DNA of 64,000 bases. It comes from a virus (Duplodnaviria > Caudoviricetes). Positions 3,761 to 47,279 of the stretch are shown here, in pieces (the first letter of the stretch is position 1; the number at the start of each line of letters is the position of its first letter). The translations under genes and the position numbers were made by a program. Location of the stretch: the IMG/VR virus record IMGVR_UViG_3300021979_000003, positions 1-64,000 of that record; one strand, written 5' to 3'. The notes under the pieces were generated by a model. The model was not told where the DNA came from, searched no databases, and worked only from the letters and a program-made list of their open reading frames with translations.

Positions 3761-3786
3761 TTCAGCCGTGATCTGTATAAAACTTT

Positions 3787-3815
3787 AATTATGGGCTTCA
3801 TGCCCATAATTTTTT
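3787..3815 (+). terminator. intrinsic terminator
   Basis: ATTATGGGC-TTCAT-GCCCATAAT followed by T run. Confidence 0.85.
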
Positions 3816-3869
3816 ATTGCATTCTTCAGTTAATACATTATAATAGAGTATCGTAAAAGAAGAATTATT

Positions 3870-4046
3870 ATGTCTAAACTAGTTTGTAAATGTGGGAAAG
3901 GATATGCTAGCGAATATGACAAGATGTGTAAGTTTTGTCGAGAAAATTCATGTGGCGTTAGACGAGCCGTATTAAAAGATTACGTGAAACATAGGGGTTA
4001 TGGATTGCCCCTAGATCAATACTTTCGCATGATGAAAAAATTATAG
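3870..4046 (+). CDS. small Cys-rich protein (58 aa, not in ORF track)
   Basis: MSKLVCKCGKGYASEYDKMCKFCRE..., downstream of TTGCAT-16-TATAAT promoter (3817-3844). Confidence 0.55.
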   Translation: MSKLVCKCGKGYASEYDKMCKFCRENSCGVRRAVLKDYVKHRGYGLPLDQYFRMMKKL

Positions 4047-4134
4047 AGAGGTGGCCGAGCGGTCGAAGGCAACGGCTTGGAAAGCCGTAGACTCCTAACG
4101 GGGTCCGGGGGTTCGAATCCCTTCCTCTCTGCCA
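4045..4134 (+). tRNA. tRNA-Ser(GGA)
   Basis: AGAGAGG/CCTCTCT acceptor, ACGGC-TTGGAAA-GCCGT, long variable arm, G73, CCA. Confidence 0.96.
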
Positions 4135-4162
4135 TTTTTATTTAATTGATAATGAGGTTGTT

Positions 4163-7335: not shown

Positions 7336-7364
7336 TTGCAATTCAAAGTGATACCCCTTATAAT
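7336..7364 (+). promoter_or_regulatory. sigma70-type promoter for tRNA-Cys, overlapping a hairpin
   Basis: TTGCAA-17-TATAAT. Confidence 0.7.
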
Positions 7365-7378
7365 GTAAATATAAACTG

Positions 7379-7452
7379 GCCGGTTTAGCCAAGTGGTTAG
7401 GCAGCGGATTGCAAATCCGCCTACGGGGGTTCAAATCCCTCAACCGGCTCCA
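7379..7452 (+). tRNA. tRNA-Cys(GCA)
   Basis: GCCGGTT/AACCGGC acceptor, GCGGA-TTGCAAA-TCCGC, U73, CCA. Confidence 0.96.
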
Positions 7453-10055: not shown

Positions 10056-10084
10056 CAAAGTATAAATAACATGTAGAATGAAGT

Positions 10085-10196
10085 TAAGTAGAGCTAATTA
10101 AGATCATCCTTCTATTAAACATACTATTGGCTGAGTGAAACGATCTTTAAACTTCTCTACGCCCTATTTCAAAAGACCGCATTAGCGGTCTTTTTT
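10085..10196 (+). ncRNA. candidate small RNA (long hairpin plus terminator)
   Basis: TTGACA-16-TAGAAT promoter (10052-10079); GTAGAG/CTCTAC and TTAAGATC/GATCTTTAA helices; no ORF; next gene has its own promoter (10206-10234). Confidence 0.55.
10171..10196 (+). terminator. intrinsic terminator
   Basis: AAAAGACCGC-ATTA-GCGGTCTTTTTT. Confidence 0.9.
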
Positions 10197-10258
10197 ATTT
10201 GTCTATTGTATTTCATAACACAACCTGTTAGAATGTTTTTAAATGGTAGGAGATTGAC

Positions 10259-10462
10259 ATGGTTAAACGTGATACTAGTCCCGAAACTGCAAAAGAACAT
10301 GCAATTCATGATGTAGTTAGTGATGCGGAATTCTGCGTTCTACACTCTCCTGAGTTCTACAAAGACAAATACAATCGAATCTGTGATGATCAAGACCTTT
10401 CCGACGATTTACGACAAGCCTATATGGAAGGAATTGATTTGGGGTTTGATGAAGCACTATAA
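10259..10462 (+). CDS. small acidic hypothetical protein
   Basis: AGGAG RBS. Confidence 0.75.
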   Translation: MVKRDTSPETAKEHAIHDVVSDAEFCVLHSPEFYKDKYNRICDDQDLSDDLRQAYMEGIDLGFDEAL

Positions 10463-10482
10463 CTTTAAACGAGGATAATAGA

Positions 10483-36447: not shown

Positions 36448-36456
36448 TATACGCCC

Positions 36457-38939: not shown

Positions 38940-39000
38940 TTCAATTCCTCAATAGTTATATGTTAAGTTAATTATACACATCATGTAATTAAAAGTCGAG

Positions 39001-39144
39001 GGCGGACGGAGGATTCGAACCCACTCATGCAAGATAATTATTCCATGACCGGCCTAGCCATTAGTAACACCTTACACTTATCATTGAAACATTACAATTG
39101 ACCGGTTTAATAATGTTTCTCAGACCAGCCCTAATGCATCCGCC
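39001..39144 (-). ncRNA. 144-nt tRNA-like RNA without canonical anticodon arm
   Basis: GGCGGAT/GTCCGCC acceptor, GG-TTCGAAT-CC T-loop, internal helices CATTAG/CTAATG, GAAACATTA/TAATGTTTC, TCATG/CATGA; no encoded CCA. Confidence 0.7.
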
Positions 39145-39152
39145 ATAATTCG

Positions 39153-40269: not shown

Positions 40270-40577
40270 CTATTACCACTAGCATCTTTTATTCTTTCTT
40301 CAGACATATCATCCAAGAATGAAATAGCGTATAAGAACATAACAACAAATGAAATAAAAATAGAATACAAAACTGATACGACAATTGCCAATAACAAATG
40401 CCACTGAATTGATGTCAAAAACATACCCATTGAAAATATATTAGCCATAAAAAACAATATTAACACATACACACACGCGTTTACTAACTTATTTTCAAGA
40501 ACGTGTTTTCTTTCTACGACTTTCAAATCACGAGTTTCGCCGCTCTCATGATCAGCGAAAATATTATAACCCATCAA
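40266..40577 (-). CDS. two-TM membrane protein
   Basis: Hydrophobic segments. Confidence 0.7.
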   Translation of the reverse strand: MMGYNIFADHESGETRDLKVVERKHVLENKLVNACVYVLILFFMANIFSMGMFLTSIQWHLLLAIVVSVLYSIFISFVVMFLYAISFLDDMSEERIKDASGNR

Positions 40578-40836
40578 TAAAATCCATACGTGTCTTGTGG
40601 TTTACCATAACCCAGATACGTTCGATGATAGCCATAGGCACAATGAAACTGAAAAGGGTAACAGTCCAAATAACAAGGCCCATTGCTAATGAATGTTTAA
40701 CTCCAACTACAATTCCAGCAAGAGTACATCCAATAGCACAGATAACCATCAATGTGATGATCTTTTTTCGAACATCCATATAGAAATTATACTTTTTACG
40801 TGTTCGTTCATGCTTTGTTGCCATTGAATCTGTCAT
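40564..40836 (-). CDS. two-TM membrane protein
   Basis: AGGAG RBS; own promoter TTGCAT-17-TATAAT at 40860-40888. Confidence 0.75.
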   Translation of the reverse strand: MTDSMATKHERTRKKYNFYMDVRKKIITLMVICAIGCTLAGIVVGVKHSLAMGLVIWTVTLFSFIVPMAIIERIWVMVNHKTRMDFIDGL

Positions 40837-40887
40837 AAGGATGTCTCCTGTTTAACAATATTATAAAGCATGATTATTTTAAATGCA

Positions 40888-40912
40888 AGAAAAAGGCGGG
40901 ATAAACCCGCCT
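40888..40912 (-). terminator. intrinsic terminator of the large ncRNA
   Basis: AGGCGGG-TTTAT-CCCGCCT-TTTT on minus strand. Confidence 0.88.
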
Positions 40913-40934
40913 CATCTTTTTCTCTATTTTACTC

Positions 40935-40963
40935 TAAGTTTCTATTAAGTTTCTATTAAGTTT
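40935..40963. repeat. 11-nt tandem repeat TAAGTTTCTAT (about 2.6 copies)
   Basis: Direct repeat visible between ncRNA body and terminator. Confidence 0.85.
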
Positions 40964-40964
40964 T

Positions 40965-41225
40965 GCGGTAGTTACTTTCCACTACCAAGTCAGTCACGCA
41001 TTAGCTTCTAAGGCTTTTCAGCCTCCGCTGTCTCGTTGAGACTTGCGCTCCCCACTGACTCGTCTATGTATGAAAGGACCGTTGTGGGAATAACGACCTT
41101 CCCCATTCCCTTATCTCTAGTGTGTACGTTGTAAGCTATAAGGAATGGAAAACTCGCCTACACGCCCTTTCTTACTCTTAGTTTAAGGGAACTATAAGAA
41201 AGGTAATTCGTTTCCCTCAATCTTC
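40965..41225 (-). ncRNA. large structured ncRNA of unknown family
   Basis: ORF-free, GC-richer than flanks, at least 6 helices, own promoter and terminator. Confidence 0.75.
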
Positions 41226-41231
41226 ATATAC

Positions 41232-41260
41232 AGTATACTGCAATATTATTTAGGTTGCAA
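41232..41260 (-). promoter_or_regulatory. sigma70-type promoter of the large ncRNA
   Basis: TTGCAA-17-TATACT. Confidence 0.75.
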
Positions 41261-41770
41261 CCCCTTATCTCGAATTACTTCGTTCATTTTTTCTAACGCT
41301 GAACGAACTTCCTCAATACGATCATTAGGGTGTGTACCGTCATGGTGAAGCTCAGCCGAATAAGGTCTACGAGATAGAACATCTTCACAAAAGCTCAAAG
41401 CATTATATGCTTCAATTAGTGCGTGATCTTCATATTCCTGATCTACCATAACTTTTGGTGGCTCTTCGTCGTCATGTTCGACATCATCAGACCAACACTC
41501 ATCTTCAGTATCGACATAAAAAATATCGTCGTGAAGACCATTAACGATCCTTCCACCAGCACCAACTACCACATAATGATTTGGCATGTTACCGATTTCA
41601 GAAAGAATGGTACAGCTTTTAGCTTTAGTTTTAAGACTAAAACCTAGCATTCTATAATAGTTATCTCGATGGTGTTTATCATAATCATCAGCATCGCAGA
41701 TAACTGATACTGCTATGCCTTTCCTAAGAGCATGTAACGCTCTGTCATGTTCACACAATGGAACCAGCAT
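41246..41770 (-). CDS. hypothetical protein
   Basis: GGAGG RBS, 174 aa. Confidence 0.75.
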   Translation of the reverse strand: MLVPLCEHDRALHALRKGIAVSVICDADDYDKHHRDNYYRMLGFSLKTKAKSCTILSEIGNMPNHYVVVGAGGRIVNGLHDDIFYVDTEDECWSDDVEHDDEEPPKVMVDQEYEDHALIEAYNALSFCEDVLSRRPYSAELHHDGTHPNDRIEEVRSALEKMNEVIRDKGLQPK

Positions 41771-44260: not shown

Positions 44261-44582
44261 AATGATGGTATACCGTAGTCCATCGATTGGACATTCCCAT
44301 ATTATAAATAATTTCTTCTGCAAGTTTTTCTGGTACTTTGTGGCGTTGTACACACTCTAGGTTACACAGCTTATCAATAATTTCATTTTTAGAAAACGTG
44401 TTACCAACTTCTAACAAGATAGAAAACTTTTCAAATACATCATGTATTTCATTAAACTCTTCTTGTGAAATATTATTTTCGTGGATTGTTCGGATAATAG
44501 GTAAACTACTATCCGAAACCAGCAAATCCACTGTATGCTCTAGGTGCTTGATACGCTCTTTTAGATCGTCTATTTCACTCAT
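44247..44582 (-). CDS. hypothetical protein
   Basis: ATGA overlap with upstream gene. Confidence 0.65.
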   Translation of the reverse strand: MSEIDDLKERIKHLEHTVDLLVSDSSLPIIRTIHENNISQEEFNEIHDVFEKFSILLEVGNTFSKNEIIDKLCNLECVQRHKVPEKLAEEIIYNMGMSNRWTTVYHHYVRY

Positions 44583-46792
44583 TTTAGCCACTCATTGTTG
44601 AATTCTTCTGTGTTCTGAATGAGGCTATTATCAATAACCACATCCGCCGACTCAGCATCATCAGTAACAACCATGTCATTTGCTTTCGCAAACAGGTCAA
44701 AGTAATCATACATTTTCATGAACGATGCATTGATATTCATGATATAGTTGAACTGATTTTCAATAGCACTCATTTGCGAACCGATATTTGATCCAGTCAT
44801 GTTATGGCTAGGCATATCAGCCCACAACATTGTTTTGTTTTCAATGTCGTAGATAAGTGCCAATACTGCCCTTGCGTCACACGTAAGGTCAAAACGATCT
44901 ACTACCTTCAATGGATCATATGTCTTATCGAATACACCATTGTCGCTGCACATAACGCCACAGAATGCATCAAAGCTATCTAGTGACTGATGACTAAATA
45001 CGTTTACATACATCACAACATAACGTGCATTACGGGACTTCAGTTTGTCTAGGTTAATATCAACAAACTCAGTAGCACCGTCAGGCGCTGACGTGAAGTC
45101 ACCAGAATGCTTCGAGTACTTACCATGTATATCATAATACGCACAAGTCTCAATTTGAGTAAAATTGTCATTAACAATAGTAGTAGACAAGTCTAGATCA
45201 ACACGACCACTTTCATCATTTTCCTTCCAATAGGTAAAGAAACGAAGATAGTTAGTATCCTCAGACACTTTCATACTAGAACCACGCTCAGCCTTAAACA
45301 TGCTGTTCTTCATGGAACGCATCTTCATCGGTAGAATACGTGTAGTCAATGAAGGATCGATGAAGATTGATTTACCTTCATACTCAGAGTCTTTAAGCTT
45401 TTCCTTAATGACTTCATCAATCACTGCAATAAGTTTCTTACAGTTTTCTTCGGAAATTTCTTCACGGTCTTTATCAATGACATTACTAAATCCACGCTTA
45501 TTAATATAAACACGAGAAACCGTATAGTTATTAAGACGTGAAGAAAAGTTATCACGTGCACCAACCAGAACCCTCATAGAGGCAGAAGAACCACAGTCCT
45601 TAAATGCATCTGTAATCAGGTCGATAGACTCAGGAAACTTACGAGAGAAGTTATCTAGGTTACGTGCAAAGATACCCGGACGTTGAGACGCCAGCTTTAC
45701 AACTTTACCAATGTTCTTCTCATCAACCAATGCAATTTGAAGTTTACCTTCAAACGTCTTAATTGTTTCCGGCTTGTTAAGGACAGTGTTTACAGCCTTG
45801 AATGAATCTTCGTACTTTTTCTTGAACACGCCAAAGTGAACCGCCATGTTAAGCTCAACCCACTTGTCACGTTCTTTGATCATATCTTCTAGTGGGTTTT
45901 TAATGTTATTCAAGTATGCAGCAACAAGCTTACGTTGGCTATTGGAAAGCTTGAACTTTCCATATTCCTCAGACTTGTTTACTTTTTCTGCTACACGCAT
46001 AACATCTTTAGCAGTTTTAACATTCTTAGAGGTCATATCGAAAACGGTTTTATAATCAAACCTGTCAAGCAGAAGATTGACAACCTTAGATACAGTTTCT
46101 TTAAACGGCATTTCACGATCAATAATCACTTTGATTTCGTCATCCGTTAGAACACTAACCATTTTTGTCAGGTCAAGTTCTTGTTGTGGAGACATACCAG
46201 TTTTGGATTCAACGCAAGAACCAACATAAGAGAAAAGTTGATCTTGTGTGATTAGACCGATTTCTTTCAGACGTGTGTTAACACTGAAGTTGCTTGTTTT
46301 ACCAATAGTCAACTCAACATCATACGCTGTGTATTCACAGATAGGACATTCTGATTGTGTCATGTAATCAGCAACACGATGACCACAGTCTAGAGTTTTC
46401 AATTCATTTACTTCGTCAGAAGCATCTGAAAACTGCTCAAGAAAGTCAACCAGTTCATTATTAACCAAGCGGCTATTTCGAATAACATCTGTTTTATCAA
46501 CAGCATGGTGCGGGAAACCTTCATACAAAGGCTTGAACACAACATAGGCACCTACCATTTCGGTAAGAGTTTTGAATGTAACATCTACCGTTTCTTCAAA
46601 CTCTTTCTTAGTAACATAACGAAGATGAGTCATGGCATCATCAGAAAGATAGAAGCCAAGGTTGATAAGCTCATGGTTAAATGCCTGAAGCATATGCTCT
46701 TCAACACGAACAGACTTTGTATTGTCTCCCGCTACTAACGACAGACGTGCTTCAATTGCGATTTCATTAAAAACTTTATTACGCTTAGACAT
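44579..46792 (-). CDS. prokaryotic RING-4 / TROVE-like / TerD multidomain protein
   Basis: LDCGH...ECPIC finger, helical repeats with RPGIFARNLD, C-terminal TerD (RVDLDLS, HSGDFTSAPDGATEFVDINL); likely start MSKRNK at 46792. Confidence 0.8.
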   Translation of the reverse strand: MSKRNKVFNEIAIEARLSLVAGDNTKSVRVEEHMLQAFNHELINLGFYLSDDAMTHLRYVTKKEFEETVDVTFKTLTEMVGAYVVFKPLYEGFPHHAVDKTDVIRNSRLVNNELVDFLEQFSDASDEVNELKTLDCGHRVADYMTQSECPICEYTAYDVELTIGKTSNFSVNTRLKEIGLITQDQLFSYVGSCVESKTGMSPQQELDLTKMVSVLTDDEIKVIIDREMPFKETVSKVVNLLLDRFDYKTVFDMTSKNVKTAKDVMRVAEKVNKSEEYGKFKLSNSQRKLVAAYLNNIKNPLEDMIKERDKWVELNMAVHFGVFKKKYEDSFKAVNTVLNKPETIKTFEGKLQIALVDEKNIGKVVKLASQRPGIFARNLDNFSRKFPESIDLITDAFKDCGSSASMRVLVGARDNFSSRLNNYTVSRVYINKRGFSNVIDKDREEISEENCKKLIAVIDEVIKEKLKDSEYEGKSIFIDPSLTTRILPMKMRSMKNSMFKAERGSSMKVSEDTNYLRFFTYWKENDESGRVDLDLSTTIVNDNFTQIETCAYYDIHGKYSKHSGDFTSAPDGATEFVDINLDKLKSRNARYVVMYVNVFSHQSLDSFDAFCGVMCSDNGVFDKTYDPLKVVDRFDLTCDARAVLALIYDIENKTMLWADMPSHNMTGSNIGSQMSAIENQFNYIMNINASFMKMYDYFDLFAKANDMVVTDDAESADVVIDNSLIQNTEEFNNEWLK

Positions 46793-47279
46793 TAGTAACT
46801 TCTCCGTTGACATATTCATATTCGCTCATTTTACCAGTAAGGAAAAGAAATGAACGCTGATACTTAATCATTCTGTTGATATCTTTTTGACTTACACCTT
46901 TCAGACGTGTGATGTTTGAGTTGTCCTTAAGGTCTGCCAGCTTAACCTTTCGACTATCTTCGTTTTCTTTAATGCCACGAATATAGTTGGTGTAACTGTC
47001 TTGTGGCATGTGAGTGAGGCGTACAAGAGCATCTACAACACGTGCACTGAATCCCATTTTAATAAGGTCTTCGAAAGTTATATCAGTGTCCTCTACCACA
47101 TCGTGGAGTACTGCGATTTGACGCAACTCAGGGTCATCATCTGGCATCGCGTTCATAACACGAAGGACATGAAGCACGTAAGGTCTACCACCTTTATCTA
47201 GAACGCCATCATGTTTTTCAGATGCGAGGGCGATAGCTTTGGATAGCATTTTCCATTGATTACGTGCTTGATCAGTCAT
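46785..47279 (-). CDS. HD-domain hydrolase, SpoT/MESH1-like
   Basis: AIALASEKHDG..DKGGRPYVLH...AVLHDVVEDT...VKLADLKDN. Confidence 0.9.
   Translation of the reverse strand: MTDQARNQWKMLSKAIALASEKHDGVLDKGGRPYVLHVLRVMNAMPDDDPELRQIAVLHDVVEDTDITFEDLIKMGFSARVVDALVRLTHMPQDSYTNYIRGIKENEDSRKVKLADLKDNSNITRLKGVSQKDINRMIKYQRSFLFLTGKMSEYEYVNGEVTNV

Follow-up and report, generated by a model that had tools for sequence, protein, structure and literature searches.

Large RNAs that adopt complex folds and have no assigned function are rare, and earlier examples have yielded new biology; HEARO, for instance, was reportedly later recognised as the guide RNA of IscB. To our knowledge, the large orphan RNAs of bacteria and phages that have been resolved so far turned out to be components of ribonucleoproteins (RNPs), guides or assemblies, and none of them catalytic. 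The non-coding RNAs of jumbo phages have barely been described, and a 2026 review of jumbo-phage biology mentions non-coding RNAs once (PMC13282480). Two large RNAs associated with phages, ROOL and GOLLD, assemble into cages made of RNA alone (PMC12286853), and a 2026 preprint reports assemblies from RNAs shorter than 200 nucleotides (nt) (10.64898/2026.07.01.735769). Here we describe an RNA gene in a 64,000-nt stretch of viral DNA (hereafter the window), taken from the 239-kb IMG/VR record IMGVR_UViG_3300021979_000003 (Caudoviricetes, completeness estimate 54%), where it occupies positions 40887-41260 of the minus strand. The locus is conserved among relatives, has a defined secondary structure on that strand, lacks coding capacity and is bounded by a conserved promoter and a conserved terminator, and we consider it very probable that it is a genuine gene for a conserved, structured RNA whose family is not in Rfam. 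An earlier note on this DNA, made from the sequence alone, had proposed at this place a novel multi-helix phage non-coding RNA with pseudoknots, a proposal that the outcome of the Rfam searches, the covariation among homologues and the conserved promoter and terminator all support.

Stable RNAs encoded by large phages include the RNAs C and D of T4, to which the present one may be likened. With GOLLD, ROOL, raiA, OLE and HEARO it shares a considerable length, its many helices, its richness in pseudoknots, its discovery through conservation and a function not evident from sequence, and with GOLLD and ROOL, in addition, a phage-borne location near genes for tRNAs or tRNA-like RNAs (PMC12286853). 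It differs from these large orphan RNAs in having no sequence or structure match to them and in being restricted to one lineage of marine jumbo phages, and it is, at ~335 nt, far smaller than GOLLD and ROOL. The transfer-messenger RNAs (tmRNAs) of huge phages (PMC7162821) are likewise products of phage-encoded stable RNA genes, contain pseudoknots and are encoded among tRNA-like genes, whereas the RNA described here has no acceptor/T-arm module and no conserved tag frame in its tail, since a deletion in the tail is not divisible by three; ARAGORN called six tRNAs across the window but did not call a tmRNA. Protein-titrating RNAs of the CsrB/RsmZ type (RF00166, clan CL00106) also carry repeated short single-stranded motifs 5' of a terminator, in copy numbers that vary between relatives, and the portion of our RNA from helix P8 through the tail to the terminator gave recurrent weak PrrB_RsmZ matches in three lineages (15.9, 19.9 and 19.3 bits, against a gathering score of 44 for RF00166). 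The repeat here is, however, AAUAGAAACUUA and not a GGA in hairpin loops, and nothing in those RNAs corresponds to the pseudoknotted body of 250 nt.

To place the RNA among described families, the whole window was scanned by cmscan against Rfam 15 (4227 models, including GOLLD, ROOL, raiA, OLE, HEARO, IMES, RNase P, group I and II introns, riboswitches and small ribozymes), which returned six tRNAs only and nothing at gathering score in the RNA locus. A permissive scan of positions 40800-41350 had as its best match sroD, lying over the terminator (22.6 bits against a cut-off of 50, E 0.046), and gave no credible match covering the structured body; five homologous loci gave only sub-threshold matches to tail or terminator, such as L20_leader at 30 bits against 58.7. 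The RNA thus matches no Rfam 15 family and constitutes a new one. Apart from the tRNAs, then, the window holds no confident match to any known family, and the remark of the earlier note that it recognised no hallmarks of tmRNA, RNase P, group I introns or riboswitches agrees with the Rfam result and, for tmRNA, with that of ARAGORN. Literature searches found no published description of this RNA.

Conservation, covariation and transcription signals

Homologues were reached through the gene immediately upstream, which encodes a protein of 174 amino acids (aa). A collection of 5.8 billion proteins held eight clusters related to it (57-93% identity), and by this route six more distinct lineages were obtained on marine metagenome contigs (protein 60-93% identical), which stem from Tara Oceans and further publicly available metagenome assemblies; one of the protein clusters occurs also on a contig of 461,710 bp. 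The contigs of these relatives show the same gene order and, in the same position, a gap of ~345-415 nt free of open reading frames (ORFs). Two further copies, L017 and L021, near-identical to L003 and L013, respectively, came from JGI metagenomes scanned with a degenerate motif. The seven lineages analysed are thus the window, L003 (with L017), L010, L013 (with L021), L015, L005 (identical in L006-L009) and L011 (with L012), the last being the most distant, with 60% identity in the neighbouring protein. The L017 contig (OJDD01004401.1) ends, at its positions 1-30, in CTGTCTCTTATACACATCTCCGAGCCCA, an assembly artefact that starts immediately after the RNA core and reads as Nextera adapter sequence.

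The secondary structure was scored on a structure-blind MAFFT alignment of the seven lineages, using a curated model of 85 pairs that includes both pseudoknots. Standard pairs filled 95.4% of the 562 pair cells, against 43-56% when the 3' partners were slid by 1-3 columns, and two-sided changes were seen in 31 of the 85 pairs, the slid controls having only 1-7 such pairs; in 500 column shuffles, the observed pairing, covariation score and compensatory-pair count were never matched. Covariation among homologues, which the earlier note had expected of a real RNA, is thus abundant. RNAalifold, applied to the same seven lineages, predicted 71 pairs, of which 26 show compensatory changes. A covariance model, R1, was built from the core (window 40986-41104), and on the alignment fitted to it 97.3% of the cells were paired and 15 of 38 pairs compensatory. 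Pairing amounted to 97.1% on the minus strand and to 84.4% on the opposite strand, which pairs worse because of 34 G.U cells, and from this difference we conclude that the RNA is read from the window's minus strand. Many invariant unpaired positions adjoin freely covarying helices, and the single sequence of the locus folds at -99.9 kcal/mol (z = -3.8 against dinucleotide shuffles).

The record is densely packed, with ORFs of at least 70 aa covering 94.7% of it, and the RNA lies in a 409-nt gap without any such ORF (40837-41245), the third largest of its kind in the 239 kb; two gaps of similar size (1367-1743 and 3761-4162) contain tRNA genes. The flanking genes, also on the minus strand, are those of the 174-aa protein upstream (41246-41770) and of a 90-aa membrane protein downstream (40564-40836). 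The body had been described as ORF-free, and indeed the gap holds no ORF of at least 60 aa, its sole ORFs being of 32 aa, with start codons that are absent in L010 and L013. Since no ORF is conserved and the insertions and deletions among relatives have lengths that are not multiples of three, the locus is non-coding.

Both ends of the gene are marked by conserved signals (Table 1). The promoter that the earlier note had read was found again by a promoter scan; its -35 box overlaps the final codons of the upstream 174-aa gene, its -10 box is invariant, and 8 of 9 aligned copies have TTGCAA or TTGCAG as the -35 box. In L011 a separate promoter, TTGATA-17-TATACT, is placed directly 5' of P2 and thus ahead of a shortened RNA. 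The motif class to which the promoter belongs numbers 21 sites in the genome, against ~9 in shuffles, and is also found closely 5' of tRNA-Cys and at further ORF-free gaps. At the 3' end, a terminator scan found the hairpin that had been claimed to follow the tail, and this terminator is kept across lineages with 3 of 8 pairs compensatory (for example GCGAGG/CCUCGC in L011). The next gene does have, as had been stated, its own promoter after the terminator, with CTTG and TATAAT blocks conserved in the alignment; the promoter scan omits it because its -35 box agrees with the consensus at 3 of 6 bases only. The transcript from promoter to terminator measures ~335 nt and its structured body ~255 nt, the size given before. 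Conservation of promoter and terminator, the presence of the same promoter class ahead of tRNA-Cys and the separate promoter of the next gene support an independent gene, and because the promoter has been relocated in L011 we deem it likely that the RNA is transcribed independently; it would presumably accumulate as an independent RNA as well.

Searches of isolate phages and of IMG/VR at the DNA and protein levels returned nothing close: the locus had no match in a DNA search of isolate phages, and neither both flanking proteins, nor a protein alignment, nor an exact 23-mer had any in IMG/VR. A degenerate core motif matched IMG/VR once, in a GC-rich sequence unlike the family and without a model match at E up to 1; the same motif gave 10 matches in JGI metagenomes, only L017 and L021 being genuine by covariance model, and three in 185,579 prokaryote genomes, none of them confirmed. 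R1 was further run against Salicola phage SCTP-2, LR745208 (a 485-kb uncultured phage) and Yersinia phage fHe-Yen9-04, giving one 18.7-bit match that was taken as chance because it lies inside a 269-aa ORF. E. coli genomes, searched for mimicry of rRNA or tRNA at the sequence level, gave no match at E up to 10, and the phage's own record contains no second copy. Only one lineage of marine jumbo phages, whose genomes measure ~440-460 kb, carries the family.

Architecture of the RNA

Table 1. Features of the RNA locus, in window coordinates and in the order of transcription.
Feature	Position	Strand	Description
Promoter	41232-41260	-	-35 TTGCAA at 41255-41260, 17-nt spacer, -10 TATACT at 41232-41237; promoter scan
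5' domain (P1 and PK1)	41166-41219	-	P1: 41195-41203 with 41166-41174
PK1	41210-41219 with 41184-41192	-	Leader UGAGGGAAAC (41210-41219) with P1 loop GUUCCCUUA (41184-41192)
P2, long hairpin	41103-41148	-	41138-41148 with 41103-41114, one bulge; 98.4% paired
P3, hairpin	41072-41102	-	GGUCGUU/AACGG-UCC; 8-nt loop AUUCCCAC at 41084-41091
J3/4, conserved single-stranded linker	41060-41071	-	AUACAUAGACGA; ACAUAGA near-invariant in the alignment
Junction domain (P4-P7)	40987-41059	-	
P4	41057-41059 with 40993-40995	-	GUC/GAC; 1 of 3 pairs compensatory, 100% paired
Candidate PK2 strand	41049-41055	-	GUGGGGA, between P4 and P5; partner is UUCCCAC of the P3 loop
P5	41044-41048 with 40996-41000	-	GCGCA/UGCGU; 3 of 5 pairs compensatory, 100% paired
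P6, hairpin	41030-41042	-	GUUC/GAAC in L011, deleted in L015; not in per-helix score
P7, arm	41003-41029	-	Kink-turn-like internal loop and A-rich apical loop; P7 changes one-sided only
P8, peripheral hairpin	40967-40986	-	GGUAGU/ACUACC, loop GGAAAGUA; 97.6% paired, 2 of 7 pairs compensatory; absent in L011
A-rich single-stranded tail	40914-40966	-	Motif AAUAGAAACUUA; 2.6 tandem 11-nt copies at 40935-40963 (Tandem Repeats Finder)
Intrinsic terminator	40887-40913	-	GAGGCGGG-UUUAU-CCCGCC and U run; hairpin 40913-40893 in terminator scan
Separate promoter of next gene (outside the RNA)	40860-40888	-	TTGCAT-17-TATAAT, 90-aa membrane protein

The alignment upheld almost all of the helices of the earlier note and revised some of its details. 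P1, P2, P3 and P8 were kept (1, 7 of 9, 6 of 11 and 2 compensatory pairs, respectively, on the MAFFT alignment), P1 and P8 being absent in L011, and so was the AGGCU/AGCCU stem, in which 3 of 4 pairs are compensatory. The GUCUC/GAGAC stem (P6) holds in most lineages but takes another form in L011 and is lost in L015. Closure of the junction was reassigned from AGUCA/UGACU to P4 together with P5, a helix that had been missed. The inner UAGUU/AACUA helix is not conserved, being present in the window and L003 only, and the GNRA loop does not stand as a feature of the family, the A-rich apical loop at the tip of P7 being GAAA in four lineages only, GAAGAA in two and UAAA in one.

Within the 5' domain, P1 (CCUUUCUUA/UAAGAAAGG) is 98% paired, with one of its ten pairs compensatory and the others invariant. 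PK1, the proposed pseudoknot between leader and P1 loop, covaries, 4 of its 10 pairs having changed on both sides. We also compared, without recourse to the alignment and lineage by lineage, the energy of the leader-loop duplex with that of shuffled loops, and the former (-10.6 to -13.9 kcal/mol) surpassed the latter (~-5 to -7 kcal/mol) in each of the six lineages with this domain, while the paired sequences themselves differ among lineages. The P1/PK1 domain is absent in L011. Seven of nine pairs of P2 (CCAUUCCUUAU/AUAAGGGAAUGG) are compensatory, and this hairpin is predicted independently in each of the seven sequences; the 3' half of its 23-nt apical loop, UACACACUAGAGAUAA, is conserved. 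For P3 the compensatory pairs rise from 6 of 11 on the MAFFT alignment to 7 of 11 on the model-fitted one, and its loop is invariant save one base in L010.

The sequences UUCCCAC and GUGGGGA, which would form the second pseudoknot, PK2, are the most conserved stretches of the RNA. They can pair in 7 of 7 lineages and six of the seven pairs never vary; because the strands are invariant, covariation neither supports nor contradicts the pairing. An RNAalifold pairing that competes with PK2, GUGGGG/CUGAC, was rejected, as its partner is deleted in L011. This loss and the conservation of the two strands speak for PK2, and a pseudoknot of 6-7 bp probably clamps the P3 loop onto the strand between P4 and P5. 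RNAalifold also proposed a long-range helix between the P1-P2 linker (J1/2) and the tail, which did no better than shuffles.

In the P7 arm, P7a is fully paired with 3 of 4 pairs compensatory. The bulged strand of the internal loop reads CC-[UUA/GUA/AUA/AUC]-GAA-GCU, its C helix ending in C, and the opposite strand AG(C/U)-GGA-GG, with AGA instead of GGA in L011; all seven lineages have the same base at each of the kink-turn positions G1b, A2b, A3b, A1n and G2n, and the 3-nt bulge is variable. At the level of sequence, the loop, which the earlier note does not mention, fits the kink-turn consensus, suggesting that the arm may adopt kink-turn geometry. Its likeness to Kt-7 of 23S rRNA extends to a C helix ending in C-G, a variable 3-nt bulge, and G.A, A.G and then A.G pairs (A.A in L011). 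This arrangement parallels the Kt-7 consensus, and a conserved G.A with a free bulge is the pattern expected of a kink-turn. A kink-turn occurs together with a pseudoknot in the SAM-I and lysine riboswitches as well, and T-box stem I is another folded RNA with a kink-turn. The likeness to kink-turn RNAs is one of motif only, as our RNA matches no riboswitch or rRNA model and is a separate gene with no leader role; moreover, the apical loop of its kinked arm is variable, whereas the loop of SAM-I itself forms the pseudoknot.

Downstream of the core, an unstructured stretch of ~50 nt precedes the terminator, and the tandem 11-nt repeat noticed there before is confirmed. The core of the motif is invariant in 7 of 7 lineages, and its copies number from 1 to ~3, varying among close relatives. 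Natural deletion variants delimit the remainder: L011 lacks P1/PK1 and P8, and L015 lacks P6, so the minimal conserved RNA comprises P2, P3, J3/4, P4 and P5 along with the kinked arm P7 and the motif of the tail, ~190 nt in all. The RNA thus offers a compact case of ~335 nt with a structure strongly supported by homologues, and a minimal core of a size suited to probing, cryo-EM and activity assays.

Possible modes of action

We tentatively favour, at somewhat less than an even chance, an RNA that acts in trans as a protein-binding scaffold or decoy. In such a scheme, a sigma-70-type promoter in the final codons of the upstream gene would start the ~335-nt transcript and the intrinsic terminator would end it. 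The dispensable 5' hairpin P1 would be locked by PK1, a pseudoknot of the H type, and the conserved core would be made up of P2, P3, the linker and the junction domain P4-P7, with a kink-turn bending the P7 arm, PK2 probably clamping the P3 loop on the strand between P4 and P5, and the A-rich 3' tail presenting one to three copies of AAUAGAAACUUA immediately 5' of the terminator. The resulting stable and compact RNA would bind protein, scaffolding one of the phage or decoying one of the host. Its recognition surface would consist of the kink-turn and the unpaired nucleotides that never vary, and the repeated tail motif would be a second, multivalent platform. We rank protein binding first, as the mode of action that we infer, because invariant unpaired nucleotides surround a pseudoknotted and kinked core and a motif of variable copy number lies in the tail before the terminator; the orphan RNAs resolved to date point the same way.

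A number of observations weigh against protein binding. PK2 is without covariation and the kink-turn geometry is deduced from the consensus alone, and conservation is partly inflated by shared ancestry because there are just seven lineages, all of one phage clade. No partner protein was found: the ten neighbouring proteins matched no Pfam family, the predicted model of the 174-aa neighbour had no fold match at E of at most 0.001, and the L7Ae family (PF01248) had no match at E up to 1 in the 239-kb record (~54% of the genome), in a search whose controls responded. Furthermore, a pseudoknotted core with conserved unpaired nucleotides would fit a ribozyme or a ligand-binding RNA equally well. 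Two other systems were also considered. The ends of the RNA do not pair with each other and it matches no Y-RNA family in Rfam, and a nearby 746-aa protein shows no support for a TROVE or TerD assignment (no Pfam family at E of at most 0.01, no PDB sequence match at E of at most 1), arguing against a Y RNA/Ro pair. Type III antitoxins of the ToxI kind have repeats of ~36 nt directly ahead of a gene for a ToxN-type endoribonuclease, whereas the repeat here is of 11 nt in 2.6 copies, with ~1 copy in close relatives, and the flanking proteins have no Pfam family.

Several other explanations deserve consideration. The tail AAUAGAAACUUA and terminator might be the Hfq module and the seed by which a base-pairing small RNA (sRNA) reaches host or phage mRNAs, the body only stabilising it, and we hold this to be unlikely. 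ARN-rich tails beside the terminator are typical of Hfq-dependent sRNAs, and the tail motif, unique outside the core as a long single-stranded stretch without variation, does read as three A-R-N triplets (AAU AGA AAC) 5' of an intrinsic terminator; yet a covarying, pseudoknotted body of ~250 nt far exceeds the needs of an sRNA, and a search of the phage genome for antisense targets of the motif gave no convincing site. Exact 10-nt complements occur twice on the plus strand and never on minus-strand transcripts, which hold no 12-nt complement either, and the nine minus-strand sites of its 9-nt complement (~3 being expected from base composition by our own estimate) are ordinary sequence with no extended pairing. 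Complementarity to the start region of the downstream gene, as in a type I antitoxin, was not above shuffles, and the phage tRNA-Ala matches the complement of GUGGGGAG over 8 nt, as would be expected by chance. Less probable still is a ribozyme with the invariant junction of the pseudoknotted core as its active site, cleaving itself or acting on a tRNA or tRNA-like transcript encoded nearby. Its appeal lies in the conserved junction and loop nucleotides of J3/4, GUGGGGAGC, GAAGCU and the P2 loop, in the two pseudoknots (PK2 being a candidate) combined with a kink-turn consensus, and in the location of the gene in a block with tRNA-like RNA genes; it suffers from the lack of any match to an Rfam 15 ribozyme family even at E up to 10, and no candidate cleavage site or substrate is evident.

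The RNA might alternatively act in cis, as the 3' untranslated region of the upstream operon, with a role in stability or processing, or as a leader that senses a ligand or protein and controls read-through into two small membrane-protein genes, which we judge improbable. There is no terminator between the 174-aa gene and the RNA, so that operon transcripts must enter it, its own terminator directly precedes the next genes, and riboswitch aptamers often contain kink-turns and pseudoknots. Against this stand the conserved promoter of the RNA, rebuilt in L011, and the conserved promoter of the downstream gene, which follows the terminator; no anti-terminator pairing is conserved, the only candidate being the non-conserved AGGCGAG in J1/2, and the ~50-nt unstructured tail parts the core from the terminator. 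An RNA-only homo-oligomer held by loop-loop contacts, on the model of ROOL and GOLLD (PMC12286853) or of the assemblies from RNAs of <200 nt reported in the preprint (10.64898/2026.07.01.735769), could in principle use the invariant UUCCCAC/GUGGGGA to pair between molecules. We consider it quite improbable: the RNA is much smaller than ROOL and GOLLD, has no sequence or model similarity to them and lacks a conserved palindromic loop, CUAG in the P2 loop becoming UUAG in the L005 lineage. Finally, it is scarcely credible that the locus is no functional RNA at all, the pattern reflecting a DNA-level element (an origin, packaging site or protein-binding array) or recent common ancestry. It is carried by one phage lineage only and some copies are near-identical, but 31 pairs show two-sided compensatory changes, with helices held while their sequences diverge, the 34 G.U cells would turn into A.C mismatches if the opposite strand or a DNA hairpin were the functional form, and varying helices with invariant loops are the signature of RNA structure.

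Should the RNA prove to act as a decoy or ribozyme or as part of an RNP, giant marine phages would have a previously unseen means of manipulating the RNA biology of their hosts. That it embodies a new functional class (a ribozyme, an RNA-only assembly, or a decoy against host defences that target RNA or translation), working with tRNA-like RNAs, we regard as a speculative prospect, about as unlikely as the Hfq-type sRNA.

Neighbouring genes and other RNAs of the region

Searches of the neighbouring proteins against PHROGs gave only families of unknown function. The predicted model of the 174-aa protein combines an SH3-like barrel with helices, at a pLDDT (predicted local distance difference test) score of 80. 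The barrel takes up ~95 aa at the N terminus and stands alone at L027:381-677 and L028:732-1022, two contigs whose protein corresponds to the N-terminal half only and which contain neither the gap nor the RNA. The acidic linker and the C-terminal helical half of the protein occur only where the RNA follows, and it is the final codons of this half that contain the RNA's -35 box. The 746-aa protein (44579-46819, minus strand) is a member of phrog_33734, with distant relatives (identity 21-29%) in Salicola phage SCTP-2 (440 kb) and in phages of Rhodobacter, Ruegeria, Rhodococcus and Campylobacter.

Two kb downstream of the RNA, an ORF-free gap on the minus strand (38940-39152) contains a second conserved structured RNA, with copies at L003:5594-5804 and L010:4835-5059. 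Its acceptor stem (GGCGGAUG/CGUCCGCC) resembles that of a tRNA and, together with a GGGUUCGAAUCC T arm, encloses a large insert; 8 of its 54 predicted pairs are compensatory among three sequences only, and it is called by neither ARAGORN nor Rfam. The RNA that is the subject of this work therefore sits in a cluster of unusual phage RNA genes.

A promoter-like site of the same class as that of the RNA begins at window position 7336 on the plus strand, and because it ends a few bases 5' of tRNA-Cys (7379-7452), this tRNA may be transcribed almost leaderless. Further gaps of 280-430 nt without ORFs of at least 70 aa lie at window 10056-10482 and 36127-36456 and at record positions 116838-117183, 126157-126438 and 220576-220884, and additional RNA genes may reside in these five; a TTGNNN-17-TATA(A/C)T site resembling a promoter lies at or near the edge of the gaps at 36127-36456, 116838-117183 and 220576-220884.

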